Below are positions 4,194-13,665 of a stretch of 25,525 bases of DNA, piece by piece. This DNA comes from Caballeronia novacaledonica. Its GTDB lineage: Bacteria > Pseudomonadota > Gammaproteobacteria > Burkholderiales > Burkholderiaceae_F. The stretch covers positions 1 to 25,525 of the forward strand of contig JBHJND010000458.1 in NCBI GenBank assembly GCA_048497655.1. The letters run 5' to 3'. Every line of letters begins with the position of its first letter. Position 1 is the first letter of the stretch. The notes beneath the pieces are model-generated. The model searched no databases and was not told the origin of the DNA. It saw only the letters and a program-made list of their open reading frames with translations. Position numbers and translations under genes: made by a program.

Positions 4194-4688
4194 ATGCATG
4201 CGCGTTTTCACATCGTCGGCTGTGCGGTCGCCGCGCAGCCCGACCAGGAGGCGATCGACGAGTTCGTCGAATGGGCGCGCCGCTTCGGCGCCCTGGTGCT
4301 GTCGCAGGACGACGTCAAGGCGGCGTTCGTGCAGTACGACGCCGCTGGCGCGCAGCTGATCCTGCACGGCTGCCGCACCGCCGCCAGCCGCCGCCAGCCG
4401 CCGCTTCGCTTCGGCTTTGCCTCGGGGGTCAAGGAAGCCAACGGCCCGGGCGGCGCGCCGCGGGTCGGCAGCCGCGGCCTGCAGCAGGCATGCGACCTGG
4501 CCGCGGCAGCGCGTCCGGGCCAGGTGCTGGTTTCATCGCAGCTCGGTTCGCTGCTGCAACTGGCCGGGCTCGAGCCCTGCGAGCGCCTTCTGTCCAGACG
4601 CCTCGTGCTGCCCGACGGACGCCCGGCGTCGGCCTTCCTGGTCGAGCCGCCGCGTGCGCGATCGTCCGCCGATCGGCCGCCGGCATGA
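4194..4688 (+). CDS. Hypothetical protein resembling a degenerate class III nucleotidyl cyclase domain
   Basis: 164 aa. LRFGFASG...VGSRGLQQACDLAAAARPGQVLVSSQL resembles cyclase LRIGIHTG...GDAVNLAARL...AKPGQILVS. Its stop overlaps the next ATG (ATGA at 4685-4688), which supports a real coupled gene. Confidence 0.65.
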   Translation: MHARFHIVGCAVAAQPDQEAIDEFVEWARRFGALVLSQDDVKAAFVQYDAAGAQLILHGCRTAASRRQPPLRFGFASGVKEANGPGGAPRVGSRGLQQACDLAAAARPGQVLVSSQLGSLLQLAGLEPCERLLSRRLVLPDGRPASAFLVEPPRARSSADRPPA

Positions 4689-5773
4689 ATCCGCTCGAGC
4701 ACGAGCTCGCCTACCCGTGGCCCGACGTGCCGGCGCTCGGCACGGCTGCCGTGCTGCGGCCCGGACTGCACTGGGTGCGCATGCGGCTGCCGTTCGCGCT
4801 CGACCACATCAACCTGTGGCTGCTCGACGACGAGATCGACGGGGTGCGCGGCTGGACCATCGTCGACTGCGGCATCACCTCCGACGAGACCAAGGCGGCG
4901 TGGGAGACGATCTTCGATGCGGTGTTCGCCGGCCGGCCGCTGCTGCGCCTGATCGCCACCCACTTTCATCCGGACCACCTGGGTCTGGCGCACTGGCTCG
5001 CCGCCGGCGGCGAGAGCCGTCGCTGGAGCGCGCCGCTGTGGATGAGCGCCACCGAGTGGACCATCGGCCGCCTGCTGTCGCAGACGAAGGGCGAACTGGG
5101 CGACGAGGCGGGTGAGCGGACCGCCGCGCACTTCGCCCGCCACGGCCTGGCCGACGCGGAGTCGCTGGCCAAGGTCCGCGCGCGCGGCGCCGGCTACTAC
5201 GCGAAGCTGGTGCCGGCGGTGCCGCCGTCGTACCGGCGGATCCAGCACGGCCAGTCGATCGCCATCGGCCCGCACGGCGCCAAGCGGGTGTTCGAGGTGA
5301 TCGTCGGCCACGGCCACGCGCCCGAGCACGTGTCGCTGTTCTGTGCCGAGGACGGCCTGCTGGTCTCCGGCGACATGGTGCTGCCGCGCATCTCGACCAA
5401 CGTCAGCGTGTTCGAGGTCGAGCCGGAGGGCAACCCGCTGCCGCAGTACCTGCATTCGCTCGACCGTTACCTGCAACTGCCGCAGGACACGCTGGTGCTG
5501 CCTTCGCACGGCAAGCCGTTCCTCGGCCTGCACAAGCGCGTCGCGCAGCAGCACGCGCACCACCGGGCCCGCCTGGACGACGTGCTGGCAGCCTGCGCGC
5601 GGCCGGCGAGCGCCGCCGACATCGTGCCGGTGCTGTTCCCGCGCGAACTCGACCTGCACCAGACGTCCTTCGCCCTCGGCGAGTCGCTGGCACACCTGCA
5701 CGCGCTATGGTTCGACGGCCGCCTCGAGCGCCGGCTCGGCAGCGATGGCGTCTACCGTTTCGCCGCGCGCTAG
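4685..5773 (+). CDS. MBL-fold metallo-hydrolase
   Basis: MNPLEHELAYPW...RMRLPFALDHINLWLL...THFHPDHLGLA (HxHxDH), GHGHAPEH, SGDMVLPRIS, LPSHG. Confidence 0.93.
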   Translation: MNPLEHELAYPWPDVPALGTAAVLRPGLHWVRMRLPFALDHINLWLLDDEIDGVRGWTIVDCGITSDETKAAWETIFDAVFAGRPLLRLIATHFHPDHLGLAHWLAAGGESRRWSAPLWMSATEWTIGRLLSQTKGELGDEAGERTAAHFARHGLADAESLAKVRARGAGYYAKLVPAVPPSYRRIQHGQSIAIGPHGAKRVFEVIVGHGHAPEHVSLFCAEDGLLVSGDMVLPRISTNVSVFEVEPEGNPLPQYLHSLDRYLQLPQDTLVLPSHGKPFLGLHKRVAQQHAHHRARLDDVLAACARPASAADIVPVLFPRELDLHQTSFALGESLAHLHALWFDGRLERRLGSDGVYRFAAR

Positions 5774-8632: not shown

Positions 8633-9229
8633 TCAGCGCAGCCGGACGATCTGCGCTTCGATGCTGTTGTCGGCCAGCAGCTTGCGCACCCGGTTGACGT
8701 CGTCGAGCTGGCCGTAGGGGCCGAGGCGCACCCGGTACAGCGTCTGGCCGCCCTACTCGATCGGGAAGATGCGCGCGTCCAGGCCAAGCATCGCCAGTTG
8801 CGCGCGCATGCCGTCGGCGTCCTCGGCCGACTTGAACGCCCCGGCCTGCAGCAGGAAGCGCGATCCGTCGGCGGTCTCCTGCTTGGCGGCGGCGGCCTCG
8901 GGGGTGGCCGGTGACGGCTCCGCCTTGGCGGCCGGTGCCGCCGGTGCGGCCGGCGGCGCGCCGGCGGCAGGCGGTGCAGCAGGCGGCGCCATGTGCAGGC
9001 CCTTGTTGGGATCCGGCAGCTTGCCGTCGGCCGGCAGCGCCGAGCCCGTCGACGGCGGCCGCACCTTGGTGACGAACGGCAGCGGCGCGTTGCTGATGTA
9101 CAGCGCCACCGCCACCGCGATGGCCAGGCCGACCACCAGGCCGATCACGAAGCCGAGCAGCATGCCGCCGCGCTGGCGGGAAACGCCCTGTTGCATCCGT
9201 CGCTTCAATTCCGTTCCAGCAGTGGACAT
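8633..9229 (-). pseudogene. SPOR-domain cell division protein (FtsN-like) interrupted by an in-frame TAG at 8753-8755
   Basis: N-terminal RQRGG plus TM helix, Pro/Ala linker, and SPOR start FLLQAGAFKSAEDADGMRAQLAMLGLDARIFPIE-TAG. The same frame continues GGQTLYRVRLGPYGQLDDVNRVRKLLADNSIEAQIVRLR-TGA(8633-8635). It sits between argS and dsbA. Could be a truncated allele, a read-through or a base-call error. Confidence 0.85.
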
Positions 9230-10997: not shown

Positions 10998-11237
10998 CTG
11001 GCGGGCGCGCCTGCGGCCGCCGCCGCGCCACCGGCGCAGTCCCGCGCCGGCGCCGGACGCTGCGTCGGCGGGCCGCCGGCACGCTGGCGCAATTCGGCCG
11101 CCGGGACTACCGTCTCGCGGGGGTCTTGCGAGGTCGATGTACGCGCCGGCAACATGCTCCCGCTGGCCTGGCGAAGTGCCGGCGGCAGGCCGGTGCAGAG
11201 CCTGGATCTGCGGTAGCGCAACTTTCGAGGGGATCCG

Positions 11238-12299
11238 ATGCGGTGTCATCCGAGGCTGGCGGCGCTGCTGATTGCGGGCAGCGCCTGGACCGGCGCCATG
11301 GCGCAGCCGGGCCCGGGCTGGGTCGTCGACTTCACTTGGAAGTACCAGGCGCAGTCGAGCCGGACGGTGCGCGAGGGCAGGACCGGCCCGGGCGGCGCCG
11401 ACACCCGCATCGCCGCGACGGGCGAGGTGGCGATCGCGGTGGAGACGCGCGGCACGATGGAGTTCAACGACCGCCTGCGCGGGGCGGCCGCGGTCAACAT
11501 GCCGGACGGCCGCAACGAGCAGCGCTACGACTCGTGGCGCTTCAAGGGCCGCAAGCCGGTGTTTGCCTCGGTCGACGTATCGGCGCAACTAGAACAGTCG
11601 GCACGCCTGAACCAGGCCGACGGCGAGGGCTCGAATCTGGTCAACGCAGAACGCAAGGGCCTGATAGGCCGCGTGCAGTACGAGCGGGCGCGCTTCGAAG
11701 TGAAGGCCTCGGGCGACGACGTCGGCTGGCTCGGCGACCACGCCGACCTGCAGATCGACCGTGTGACCAACAAGCTGATGATCATCAACCGCATCGACCT
11801 GCAGGTGAACCGCAAGGCGGTCAAGCCGACGCGGTCGTACGCGAAGCGGATCGACAAGCCGGCCGCCGCCGGCGAATGGGACCGCTCCGGGCCCGACGAG
11901 GACGCCTGGCGGGTGCTGCCGCACATCATGCCGCGCGATGTGATCGAGTTCGACATCCCGCCGGGTGCCGACCGGTTCACGCTGACCCGCGAGTACGACG
12001 CGAGCCAGCTCGCCGATCCCCTGGAATCTCTCGGCTTCCCGTTCCCCGACGACCTTCGCAACGCGGCGAAACTTCGCGATCGGCAGTACCGCGCCCGCGC
12101 CACCCTGACGCTCGACGTGCGTCGACGGGAGAGCGCCGAGGCAGCCGCGCCGGCTGGTGCGACGCCGGCCGCGCCGGCGGCGGCGCCGACGCAGCCCGCG
12201 TCGGCACAGAAGGCGGAACCGGCCAGGCCGGCGCCGCCAAGCGCCACCGACGAGGCGCTCGATGCGGTCAAGAAGCTGCGCGGCCTGCTCGGGCGCTGA
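11238..12299 (+). CDS. Secreted hypothetical protein (beta-rich) with Ala/Pro linker and C-terminal [21 protein letters not shown]
   Basis: GAGGGGA RBS, Sec-type signal peptide [24 protein letters not shown]3-biased codons, no family I recognise. Confidence 0.8.
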
Positions 12300-12369
12300 G
12301 CGCCGGTCGAAGCGCGCCGCAGGGTCGTCCCACAATCGGCAGGCACACCCAACAAAGAGGGAGCGAACA

Positions 12370-13665
12370 ATGAACAACCGAGGCGTCGTCGTGGCGACGG
12401 GGCTGGCGCTGGCAACTGCCGCGGCGGCACAGACCAAGGGGCCGCAGCAGGTGGTCAAGCCGCCGGTGGCGCAGGCGTGGATCGACGTGGCGACCTTCGC
12501 CGGCATGGGCATGCCGATGGGCGGCGGCGCAGCCGGACCGATGGGCATGCTCGGCGGCATGCTCGGTGGCGGCGCCGGCGCGAAGAACACCTTCGGCATG
12601 ACGCAGGCGGCATCCGCCGGCCGCTGGGTTGACGTGACCCTTTACACCAGCCGCAATCCGAGCCTCGCCGAGGCCCTTCAGTCGGTACCGCAGGGCACTC
12701 AGCTGGCGCCGACGCTGAAGCTGATGTCGCCGACGGAAGAGAAGGGCAAGCCGGTGCGACCCGACGACGACACGCCGATCGAGCGCGACTACGAGCGCCC
12801 CAAGGGCAAGATGCTGCTGTACTGGGGTTGCGGCGAAACCGTGCGGCCCGGCCAGCCGCGGGTGGTCGACTTCGCCACCGCGGCGCCGGCCGACTTCCAG
12901 AAGTTCTTCATCGCCCGCAGCGCCACGCAGCGCGGCACGCATTCCGCCGTCGGCCGGCCGCACTGGCCGAGCCGCGACGACACGCGCATGGTGCCGGCCA
13001 ATGCGTCGCTGGTCGGCGAGCACGGCTTCACCGGGCAGGGCGTGCCGGAGGGATTCCGCTTCGCCATCCCGGCGGCGCAGGACATCATGCCGGCGATCGA
13101 GCTGGCGCAGCGCGACGCCGGCGGCGCCACCGTGCTCGAATGGAAGGCGCTGCCCACGGCGCGCGCCTACTTCGTCGCCGCGATGGGGGCGAAGGAAGGC
13201 AGCCGCGGCGGCGACTCCGTCGAAATGGTGTTCTGGACTTCCAGCGAGGAGCCCGACACCGGCAGCGGCCTGGTCGACTACCAGACCAACGCGGCGGTCG
13301 ACCGCTGGCTGAGGGAAAAGGTGCTGCTGGCGCCGAGCGCGACCACCTGCACCGTGCCGAAGGGCATCTTCGGCCAGGGCGCGATGCTGCGCATGATCGC
13401 CTACGGCACCGAGCTGAACCTCGCCCACCCGCCGCGGCCTGCCGACCCCAAGATCGCCTGGGAGCCGCAGTGGGCGGCCAAGGTGCGCGTCAAGTCGGTC
13501 GCCAGCGCCATGCTCGGCATGGACATGGGCTCGATGATGCGCGGCGGCGGGAAGGAAGAGGCGCCGCCGGCGGCCGAGGCAGCCAAGAAGGACGACAAGC
13601 CGCCGAGCGCCGTCGACGAGGCGCTCGACGCCGCCAAGCGCCTGCGCGGCCTGTTCGGCCGCTGA
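12370..13665 (+). CDS. Secreted hypothetical protein with C-terminal PPSAVDEALDAAKRLRGLFGR
   Basis: AGAGGGAG RBS before ATG 12370, signal peptide ending AAAA-Q, Gly/Met-rich segments, LLYWGCGE motif and two Cys. Confidence 0.85.
   Translation: MNNRGVVVATGLALATAAAAQTKGPQQVVKPPVAQAWIDVATFAGMGMPMGGGAAGPMGMLGGMLGGGAGAKNTFGMTQAASAGRWVDVTLYTSRNPSLAEALQSVPQGTQLAPTLKLMSPTEEKGKPVRPDDDTPIERDYERPKGKMLLYWGCGETVRPGQPRVVDFATAAPADFQKFFIARSATQRGTHSAVGRPHWPSRDDTRMVPANASLVGEHGFTGQGVPEGFRFAIPAAQDIMPAIELAQRDAGGATVLEWKALPTARAYFVAAMGAKEGSRGGDSVEMVFWTSSEEPDTGSGLVDYQTNAAVDRWLREKVLLAPSATTCTVPKGIFGQGAMLRMIAYGTELNLAHPPRPADPKIAWEPQWAAKVRVKSVASAMLGMDMGSMMRGGGKEEAPPAAEAAKKDDKPPSAVDEALDAAKRLRGLFGR

Follow-up and report, generated by a model that had tools for sequence, protein, structure and literature searches.

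An amphipathic C-terminal tail common to unrelated exported proteins of Burkholderiales and other bacteria: a candidate membrane-surface tether

Introduction

C-terminal amphipathic anchors are already known for single enzyme families such as PBP5 (Escherichia coli DacA), in which a C-terminal amphipathic helix holds the Sec-exported soluble body on the periplasmic membrane face (PMC2909392). The membrane-targeting sequence of MinD is a short, conserved, lipid-binding peptide that is also located at the C-terminus (PMC8155659). The AsmA-like protein YhdP depends for its function on amphipathic helices at its C-terminus, which were proposed to lie in the inner leaflet of the outer membrane (PMC10592960). 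Here, we analysed a stretch of 25,525 nucleotides (nt) from Caballeronia novacaledonica (contig JBHJND010000458.1, hereafter the window). Two adjacent genes of the window, A and B, encode unrelated exported proteins with nearly the same short C-terminal tail. The tail recurs on further unrelated exported proteins and may act as a membrane-surface tether.

The layout of these proteins (signal peptide, body, low-complexity linker and conserved terminal motif) is also that of the PEP-CTERM/exosortase, GlyGly-CTERM/rhombosortase and type IX secretion system (T9SS) signals. Those signals differ in that they consist of a transmembrane (TM) helix with a basic cluster or of a folded beta-sandwich, serve tens of substrates and are read by a dedicated sortase or translocon. 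In the S-domain of secretins, the disordered C-terminus turns helical on pilotin binding and decides the localisation in the envelope. The pilotin is a dedicated lipoprotein and is usually encoded nearby; no pilotin lipoprotein was found beside the tail genes in the neighbourhoods read here.

Results

Two unrelated exported proteins end in the same tail

When protein A was compared with protein B by BLASTP, the alignment comprised the last 21 residues only, of which 17 were identical (E 2e-7). A sequence-only reading of this stretch had claimed just this, a common tail on bodies without visible similarity, and its DNA counts were exact: 55 of 66 bases matched including the TGA (52 of 63 without it), and 4 of the 11 differences were synonymous. 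The codons of the 17 shared residues were identical in 13 cases, compared with 9.3 ± 1.9 expected from local codon usage. This excess is small, so the tail DNA gives no strong sign of a recent copy.

The features of the two genes are the following, with lengths in amino acids (aa) and the predicted local distance difference test (pLDDT) of AlphaFold2. Both signal peptides were judged by eye to be Sec-type.

11227..11233, + strand: Shine-Dalgarno-like GAGGGGA, 4 nt 5' of the gene A ATG
11238-12299, + strand: gene A, 353 aa, ATG start
11238..11303, + strand: gene A signal peptide, residues 1-22, cleavage motif A-M-A/Q (...GAMA/Q)
11304..12125, + strand: gene A body, residues 23-296, beta-rich barrel-like domain
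12126..12233, + strand: gene A Ala/Pro-rich disordered linker, residues 297-332, pLDDT 35-37
12234..12296, + strand: gene A tail, 21 aa ending KKLRGLLGR, predicted helix 336-350 (AlphaFold2), stop at 12297-12299
12357..12363, + strand: Shine-Dalgarno-like GAGGGAG, 6 nt 5' of the gene B ATG
12370-13665, + strand: gene B, 431 aa, ATG start
12370..12429, + strand: gene B signal peptide, residues 1-20, cleavage motif A-A-A/Q (...AAAA/Q)
12430..13530, + strand: gene B body, with Gly/Met-rich tracts near both ends and the invariant Cys154 and Cys327
13531..13599, + strand: gene B Lys/Glu/Ala/Pro-rich linker, residues 388-410, pLDDT ~31-34, variable among homologues
13600..13662, + strand: gene B tail, 21 aa ending KRLRGLFGR, predicted helix 414-429 (AlphaFold2), stop at 13663-13665

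The genes lie on the same strand with a gap of 70 nt, and each is preceded by a GAGG-type ribosome-binding site. A longer open reading frame (ORF) with a GTG start at 12157 was considered for gene B and dismissed as an artefact of the high G+C content (72% in this region). The signal peptides line up across the family A homologues, while the gene A linker differs between homologues in length and sequence. The assembly containing the window (2.98 Mb in 660 contigs, 86% complete) held no third ORF with such an ending besides A and B when searched with a fuzzy regular expression, a hidden Markov model (HMM) and a loose terminal pattern.

The tail is conserved within both families

The tail is kept in homologues of both proteins, so the proposal of the sequence-only reading passes this check of its own. 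For family A, 78 homologues were found in a collection of 5.8 billion proteins; the tail was present in the clade nearest to the window and in several deeper members. In family B, it was present in nearly all of the 120 homologues listed.

The near clade of family A ends in DEA[LV]D[AT]V[KR]KLRGL[LF]GR. Deeper branches end in ..KAVDKLRGLFGR, in ..AVNKLRSLLGR or in a further variant of 11 residues. Family B has a long form (..DEALDA.KKLRGLFGR) and a short form (..DPVN[IV]L[RK]GI[LF]GR); homologues from other families of the order end in ..KLKGLF[GK]F, and one metagenomic homologue has a GLGGMLGG-type end in place of the tail.

In a distant clade of family A (P0036-P0078), the tail is replaced by a glycine-zipper-like stretch, GGGYGRQVGSAIGGFLGALGG, which follows a similar linker (e.g. 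residues 328-366 of P0051) and is flanked by two conserved cysteines. Its match to the Pfam model Gly-zipper_Omp was weak and below threshold (E 0.01). Glycine-zipper tails such as Gly-zipper_Omp and the YiaD-type glycine zipper/OmpA lipoproteins thus have a counterpart at the same post-linker position in this clade. As a Gly-rich hairpin between two cysteines, the stretch differs entirely from the tail in sequence and probably also in structure. The replacement after a similar linker suggests an interchangeable end piece that associates with membranes. The genes of this clade adjoin BTAD/AAA_16 regulators and giant proteins with Ig repeats, not gene B.

The tail is found on at least six further kinds of protein

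A tail profile of 30 columns was searched against 1.84 billion cluster representatives (E < 1e-3). It gave 31 matches, 30 of which end at the last or next-to-last residue of the protein. The bodies of these matches belong to A, B and two more families, C and D, all mutually unrelated.

At the DNA level, a codon pattern for K-L-R-G-L-[LF]-G-R-stop was searched in 185,579 species genomes and in metagenome contigs. In the species genomes, 38 loci were found, of which ~30 lie in frame at the end of an exported ORF and carry the upstream part of the motif that the pattern does not contain. The metagenomes gave 70 matches at 69 loci, ~55 of them terminating an exported ORF that also has the extended motif, and the families were the same as in the genomes. 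Single-linkage clustering of the metagenome bodies separated family C (the commonest carrier), A and B, DUF3617, AsmA, family D and singletons. The only reason for A and B falling into one cluster is that stop-to-stop ORFs overlap in GC-rich DNA.

The raw count of 38 genome loci is not above chance by itself, as ~9 are expected at equal base frequencies and more in GC-rich DNA. Hence, the argument rests on the reading frame, the terminal position, the export signals and the upstream motif not specified in the pattern. Approximately eight genome loci look like chance matches (among them a Hymenobacter HAD-like protein, an Actinomycetales ORF and short ORFs), which agrees with the ~9 expected. 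The Hymenobacter protein, present in two species (L049:3605-5434 and L062), is a cytoplasmic-looking HAD-like protein of 609 aa that ends in KLRGLLGR. It was taken as a chance match because it has no signal peptide, linker or upstream motif.

The consensus of the tail is x-A-x-[DE]-A-[VA]-x-K-L-[RK]-G-[LI]-[FL]-G-R at the C-terminus. Its core is K-L-[RK]-G-[LI]-[FL]-G-R-COOH, which in most cases follows x-A-x-[DE]-A-[VA]-x, and the tail comprises the last 14-20 residues. The carriers consist of a signal peptide or N-terminal TM segment, a body, a disordered linker and the terminal tail. A signal peptide or N-terminal TM segment was present wherever the N-terminus of the carrier was present. 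Beyond A and B, the tail occurs on at least six unrelated kinds of body (families C and D, the AsmA family, DUF3617, an OmpA-domain protein and single others) in Burkholderiales, Moraxellaceae, Steroidobacteraceae and Myxococcota.

AsmA-family carriers, assigned by Pfam, were found in Burkholderiales, Anaeromyxobacteraceae and another 'delta' metagenome-assembled genome (MAG). Two of them matched Pfam AsmA (PF05170) strongly (L058, 3e-58; L068, 8e-71) and two more weakly (L053 and L082); genes A and B did not match it. An N-terminal TM segment was seen in L068 and L053. One Burkholderiales group of AsmA carriers (L068:2171-4888, - strand, and L092-L094) has an internal copy, KLKGALGIKK (..VEDKLKGALGIKK..), followed by a second linker rich in Pro/Ala/Gln and then by the terminal KLRGLFGR. 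The internal copy means that a free carboxylate is not required, and it is more in line with avidity for a surface than with a free C-terminus being recognised.

DUF3617 carriers (Pfam) occur in Moraxellaceae, Fluviicoccus and Steroidobacteraceae. A complementarity of the kind 'tail or lipobox' was considered for the DUF3617 paralogues and was not seen. In Paucibacter, the tail is carried by a protein with an OmpA peptidoglycan-binding domain and no canonical lipobox. No barrel domain was found in it with Pfam, and NCBIfam gave the OmpA domain alone; TM segments were not tested. A carrier from a Kiritimatiellia MAG matched DUF4412 weakly.

The family C protein of one sister genome (G001) is exported, has 356 aa and is encoded away from gene B; its body showed no BLAST similarity to A or B. 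Directly upstream of its gene (L013:2447-3223, + strand) lies a gene for an exported protein with repeats of ~35 residues and four cysteines each (..CP.TGQC...CK..). Family D proteins have two repeats with the motif PYPGA.LD..CS.

The string LRGLFG was not found as a bacterial motif in the searchable literature, and the Pfam and NCBIfam models do not cover the tail on A, B or the other carriers. Both the presence of the motif on other proteins and its absence from described Pfam tails had been left to be checked by the sequence-only reading. Its further proposal of selection on the peptide, not a recent DNA duplication, is accepted here because the tail is kept in homologues of both families and on other exported families without a Pfam or NCBIfam match.

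The opposite explanation is that the likeness of the A and B tails is a local accident, i.e. a recent duplication or gene conversion without a function of its own. It could draw on the N-terminal extension P-S-A-x-D-E-A-L-D-A, which the A and B tails have in common in this clade alone, and on the slight over-representation of identical codons (13 of 17). Against this, the tail is old in both families and, in other genera and classes, is carried by genes that are unlinked and unrelated. The A tail is constant and the B tail variable within contigs, which means that there is no ongoing homogenisation. As judged from these sequences, conservation across families and classes excludes a local artefact of duplication or conversion, and we give this explanation almost no credence. 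The tail is a real, selected and portable module, always terminal and confined to proteins exposed to the periplasm.

Physical character of the tail and comparison with known anchors

AlphaFold2 predicted a helix of ~15 residues after a disordered linker in both A and B. The hydrophobic moment of the tail (0.52-0.57) was at the 98th percentile of 16-residue windows in the A and B bodies. The hydrophobic positions (-13, -10, -9, -6, -3 and -2 from the end) lie on one face of the helix, and the last 11 residues carry a net charge of +3 or +4. Substitutions keep the chemical class (R/K, L/I, F/L), and the endings are GR, GK, KF and GF. The predicted helix and its moment agree with the amphipathic helix that the sequence-only reading saw in the motif.

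The PBP5 anchor is similar in that the tail described here is also located at the extreme C-terminus of exported proteins, is amphipathic and is too short to span the bilayer. The PBP5 tail differs in being aromatic and more hydrophobic (ending ..IKLMFHHWFG, mean hydrophobicity +0.35 compared with approximately -0.25 here), in belonging to one enzyme family and in lacking a long disordered leash. A positive charge and a fixed motif characterise the tail here, which is found on at least eight unrelated bodies.

The last 11 residues of MinD (KKGFLKRLFGG in the E. coli MG1655 record) have a net charge of +4 and are likewise C-terminal and rich in K/R, L, F and G. MinD is also a precedent for a lipid-binding tail that is well conserved in sequence. 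No homology is claimed: the carriers here are exported, whereas MinD is a cytoplasmic protein that, once dimerised, attaches to the inner leaflet of the inner membrane. In its proposed working the tail is akin to the PBP5 anchors and in composition to the MinD sequence; it belongs to neither.

The helices Chelix_1 and Chelix_2 of YhdP are terminal amphipathic helices at the outer-membrane end, and some AsmA carriers end in exactly the tail described here. With 25-37 residues, the YhdP helices exceed the tail in length; they are also more hydrophobic and belong to the fold, while the tail is detachable and also occurs on small soluble proteins. E. coli AsmA itself ends in ..GKDVKKLLEKM, which is short, basic, amphipathic and similar in kind, without the RG..GR core.

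Carriers are few per genome and have no recurring neighbour

The number of tail-bearing proteins per genome was one to three. In near-complete sister genomes, the tail HMM found one or two proteins each: A and B, adjacent, in G008; B only in G004, which is a single contig; and B plus the unlinked family C protein in G001. The order was surveyed with an even sample of 401 genomes (≥90% complete, match at E ≤ 1e-3). A tail match was found in 10 of them (~2.5%), with one carrier each (C, D, B or AsmA). Family C was found in complete genomes in which B was not found (G069, G071 and G158), and B was therefore rejected as an obligate partner of the tail.

Based on synteny, the ancestral arrangement is argS divergent from B, followed by a convergent asparaginase II gene. 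Only the lineage of the window and G008 has gene A as an insertion between argS and B. Gene A lies directly upstream of B in the window, in G008 and in several metagenome contigs, and a family D gene lies directly downstream of B in every D neighbourhood that was read from its contig. B-D pairs were seen in three independent metagenome contexts (L037:915-3089, L042:6670-8912 and L044:2-2138). A YceI gene precedes the pair in L037, and genes for a MoxR-type AAA+ ATPase and a VWA protein follow it. B therefore has two independent kinds of pairing with another tail-bearing gene.

Besides these pairs, no neighbour recurred in the neighbourhoods read, and the C genes lie beside varied genes. The MoxR/VWA pair and a metallo-beta-lactamase with a cyclase were considered as conserved neighbours and discarded, as each occurred once, near a D and a C gene, respectively.

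The A-B and B-D pairs bear on the possibility that tails bind each other, with the helices of neighbouring products or of identical chains bundling the bodies into a complex. The hydrophobic residues have an a/d-like spacing, and tail genes are adjacent in these two independent combinations. Most tail genomes, however, have a single carrier (G004 with B only, the three genomes with C and no B, and one carrier each in the order sample), which means that hetero-pairing cannot be the general role. Approximately two heptads are also too short for a stable coiled coil alone, and the B-D pair combines tails of different types, short and long. We regard bundling as improbable.

The low copy number also bears on a true sorting or processing signal that is read by a dedicated enzyme or transporter in the style of PEP-CTERM, GlyGly-CTERM or T9SS, an analogy drawn by the sequence-only reading. 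The common layout is what speaks for it. There is no TM helix, no sorting-signal model of NCBIfam or Pfam matches, and the tail is too short for a folded domain. A genome has one to three substrates (two in this one), not tens, and no conserved neighbouring enzyme was seen; the expected co-occurrence with a processing enzyme or transporter did not appear, as none recurs next to the tail-bearing genes.

The individual systems gave the same picture. PEP-CTERM substrates have a C-terminal PEP motif, then a hydrophobic TM helix and an Arg-rich cluster; proteins A, B, C and D had no NCBIfam match at E ≤ 1, and the hydrophobic runs in the A and B tails are at most two residues long. No exosortase was found in the neighbourhoods read, although no search aimed at exosortase was made. 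For GlyGly-CTERM/rhombosortase, whose substrates combine a Gly-Gly motif with a TM helix and a basic end, there was no NCBIfam match and no TM segment. The T9SS C-terminal domain (Por_Secre_tail) is a beta-sandwich of ~70-100 residues from phyla that have a T9SS; the tail is a helix of 14-20 residues without a Pfam or NCBIfam match, and its hosts are Proteobacteria. An outer-membrane beta-signal, which is a terminal beta-strand with an aromatic last residue (usually Phe), was likewise not recognised, since the tail is predicted to be helical and mostly ends in Arg, with a minority ending in KF or GF. The tail is not a proteome-wide sorting signal, and we consider reading by a dedicated enzyme or transporter very unlikely.

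Protein bodies and surrounding genes

Proteins A and B had no match in Pfam or NCBIfam at E ≤ 1. The A body is beta-rich and was modelled well (AlphaFold2 pLDDT ~90, residues 28-296). The best structural match in Foldseek (PDB/AFDB), the ESM Atlas and a wide VIA-align search was at noise level (Z 6.7, TM-score < 0.5). Outer-membrane barrels and soluble lipid-binding barrels both occur among the matches, and for this reason the fold was left without an assignment. DUF3108, the UniRef name of one family A homologue (P0035), was not supported by a Pfam match at E ≤ 1 for P0001 or P0035.

The AlphaFold2 model of protein B was poor (pLDDT 47). Family B has more than 2,328 homologues, mostly from Burkholderiales and without a family name. 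Its mean column identity is 68%, and many Trp, His and Pro residues are invariant besides Cys154 and Cys327. One Gly/Met-rich tract follows the signal peptide and one precedes the linker; by analogy, the Met-rich tracts recall periplasmic Cu(I)-binding proteins. Feature searches in the ESM Atlas with A, B and D were uninformative.

In the window, argS is divergent from genes A and B and is followed on its far side by a SPOR-domain gene, dsbA and an SDR gene. The convergent asparaginase-II gene lies downstream of gene B. Of the 76 positions in the Pfam SPOR model, the SPOR-domain ORF (8753-9229, - strand) matches only the first 34, and it does so right at its C-terminal end. At 4194-5773, ~6 kb from genes A and B, there is a metallo-beta-lactamase gene with a B_lactamase-like_C domain and a cyclase-type gene. 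A similar pair lies near a family C gene (metagenome contig L038:4268-7720), which may be a coincidence.

Discussion

New here is a periplasmic tail that is defined by its sequence, can be transferred and occurs on at least eight kinds of unrelated body, among them lipid-transport proteins of the AsmA type. The sequence-only reading had offered three roles for it: a membrane-binding helix, a docking tag for a shared partner, or an export or processing signal for a wider set of periplasmic proteins. The first is the best supported of these, and the last was not supported.

We favour, at about even confidence, a tether of the PBP5 or MinD kind, in which envelope proteins are held at a membrane surface by a flexible leash that ends in a cationic amphipathic helix. 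After Sec export, the folded body would hang on a disordered leash of 25-70 residues. The terminal peptide would fold to a short amphipathic helix with positive charge, settle in the interface of a phospholipid leaflet and keep the protein at the membrane. The target leaflet may belong to the inner membrane, on its periplasmic face, or to the outer membrane, as its inner leaflet. Both the binding of lipid by the tail and the membrane concerned are what we infer. Reasoning from the tail's position at the outer-membrane-proximal end of the AsmA bridge proteins favours the outer membrane. A shared tail on adjacent genes (A-B and B-D) would bring both products to the same surface.

A role at a membrane surface is proposed because a glycine zipper replaces the tail in family A, because the tail is the only candidate anchor on the Paucibacter OmpA-domain protein and because it ends proteins of the AsmA family, whose C-terminus must reach the outer membrane. 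We also count as support that dedicated machinery is not needed, given one to three copies per genome, scattered taxa and no recurring neighbour.

Several points weigh against the membrane tether. The core has two invariant Leu and near-invariant K, R, G, G and R in unrelated families and different classes, a degree of conservation beyond what lipid binding by itself would demand. The hydrophobic face is small, with a mean Eisenberg hydrophobicity of -0.2 to -0.3, whereas the PBP5 tail reaches +0.35. Many B homologues carry the short form (DPVNILRGILGR), which has only ~10 residues. Some DUF3617 paralogues have neither the tail nor an alternative anchor. Because of these four points, the rival readings stay open. 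In addition, the structural matches of the protein A body include, at noise level, small beta-barrels, some of them from the outer membrane; a body embedded in the membrane would have no need of the tail as an anchor.

The strong conservation leads to the alternative of a docking peptide for one conserved envelope protein, e.g. an outer-membrane lipoprotein or barrel. The tail would fold to a helix on binding, like the secretin S-domain on its pilotin, and the partner, not the lipid, would set the location. Conservation of the core residues across unrelated bodies in Beta-/Gammaproteobacteria and Myxococcota would be expected of such a peptide. The heptad-like hydrophobic stripe (-13, -10, -6 and -3, plus -9 and -2) would suit packing on a protein surface, and AsmA-like proteins are expected to meet partners in the outer membrane (for YhdP: PMC10592960). 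Yet no gene recurs beside the tail-bearing genes in the neighbourhoods read, and no candidate partner emerged. The partner would need to be nearly universal, while only ~2.5% of the sampled genomes of the order use the tail. Moreover, the variable terminal residues (GR, GK, KF and GF) and the internal copy in AsmA argue against recognition of a fixed C-terminus. We therefore see docking as a possible but doubtful alternative to the membrane tether.

A bolder form would make the tail an address tag that is read by one conserved outer-membrane component. The tag would recruit AsmA lipid bridges and accessory proteins (families A-D, DUF3617 and the OmpA-domain protein) to one site on the inner face of the outer membrane. 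We put this forward as a speculative and rather unlikely proposal.

If the tail is merely a generic lipid-binding helix, it is a useful annotation and no surprise. With ~16 residues, it is a compact tag that could perhaps be used to tether periplasmic proteins. The tail gives a localisation hypothesis for several large families without known function; family B by itself comprises more than 2,300 clusters. The tail also connects these families with lipid-transport proteins of the AsmA type, for which contact with the outer membrane is still an open matter. If the address-tag reading is true, the tail would be a handle for the outer-membrane docking partner of the AsmA-type phospholipid transporters.

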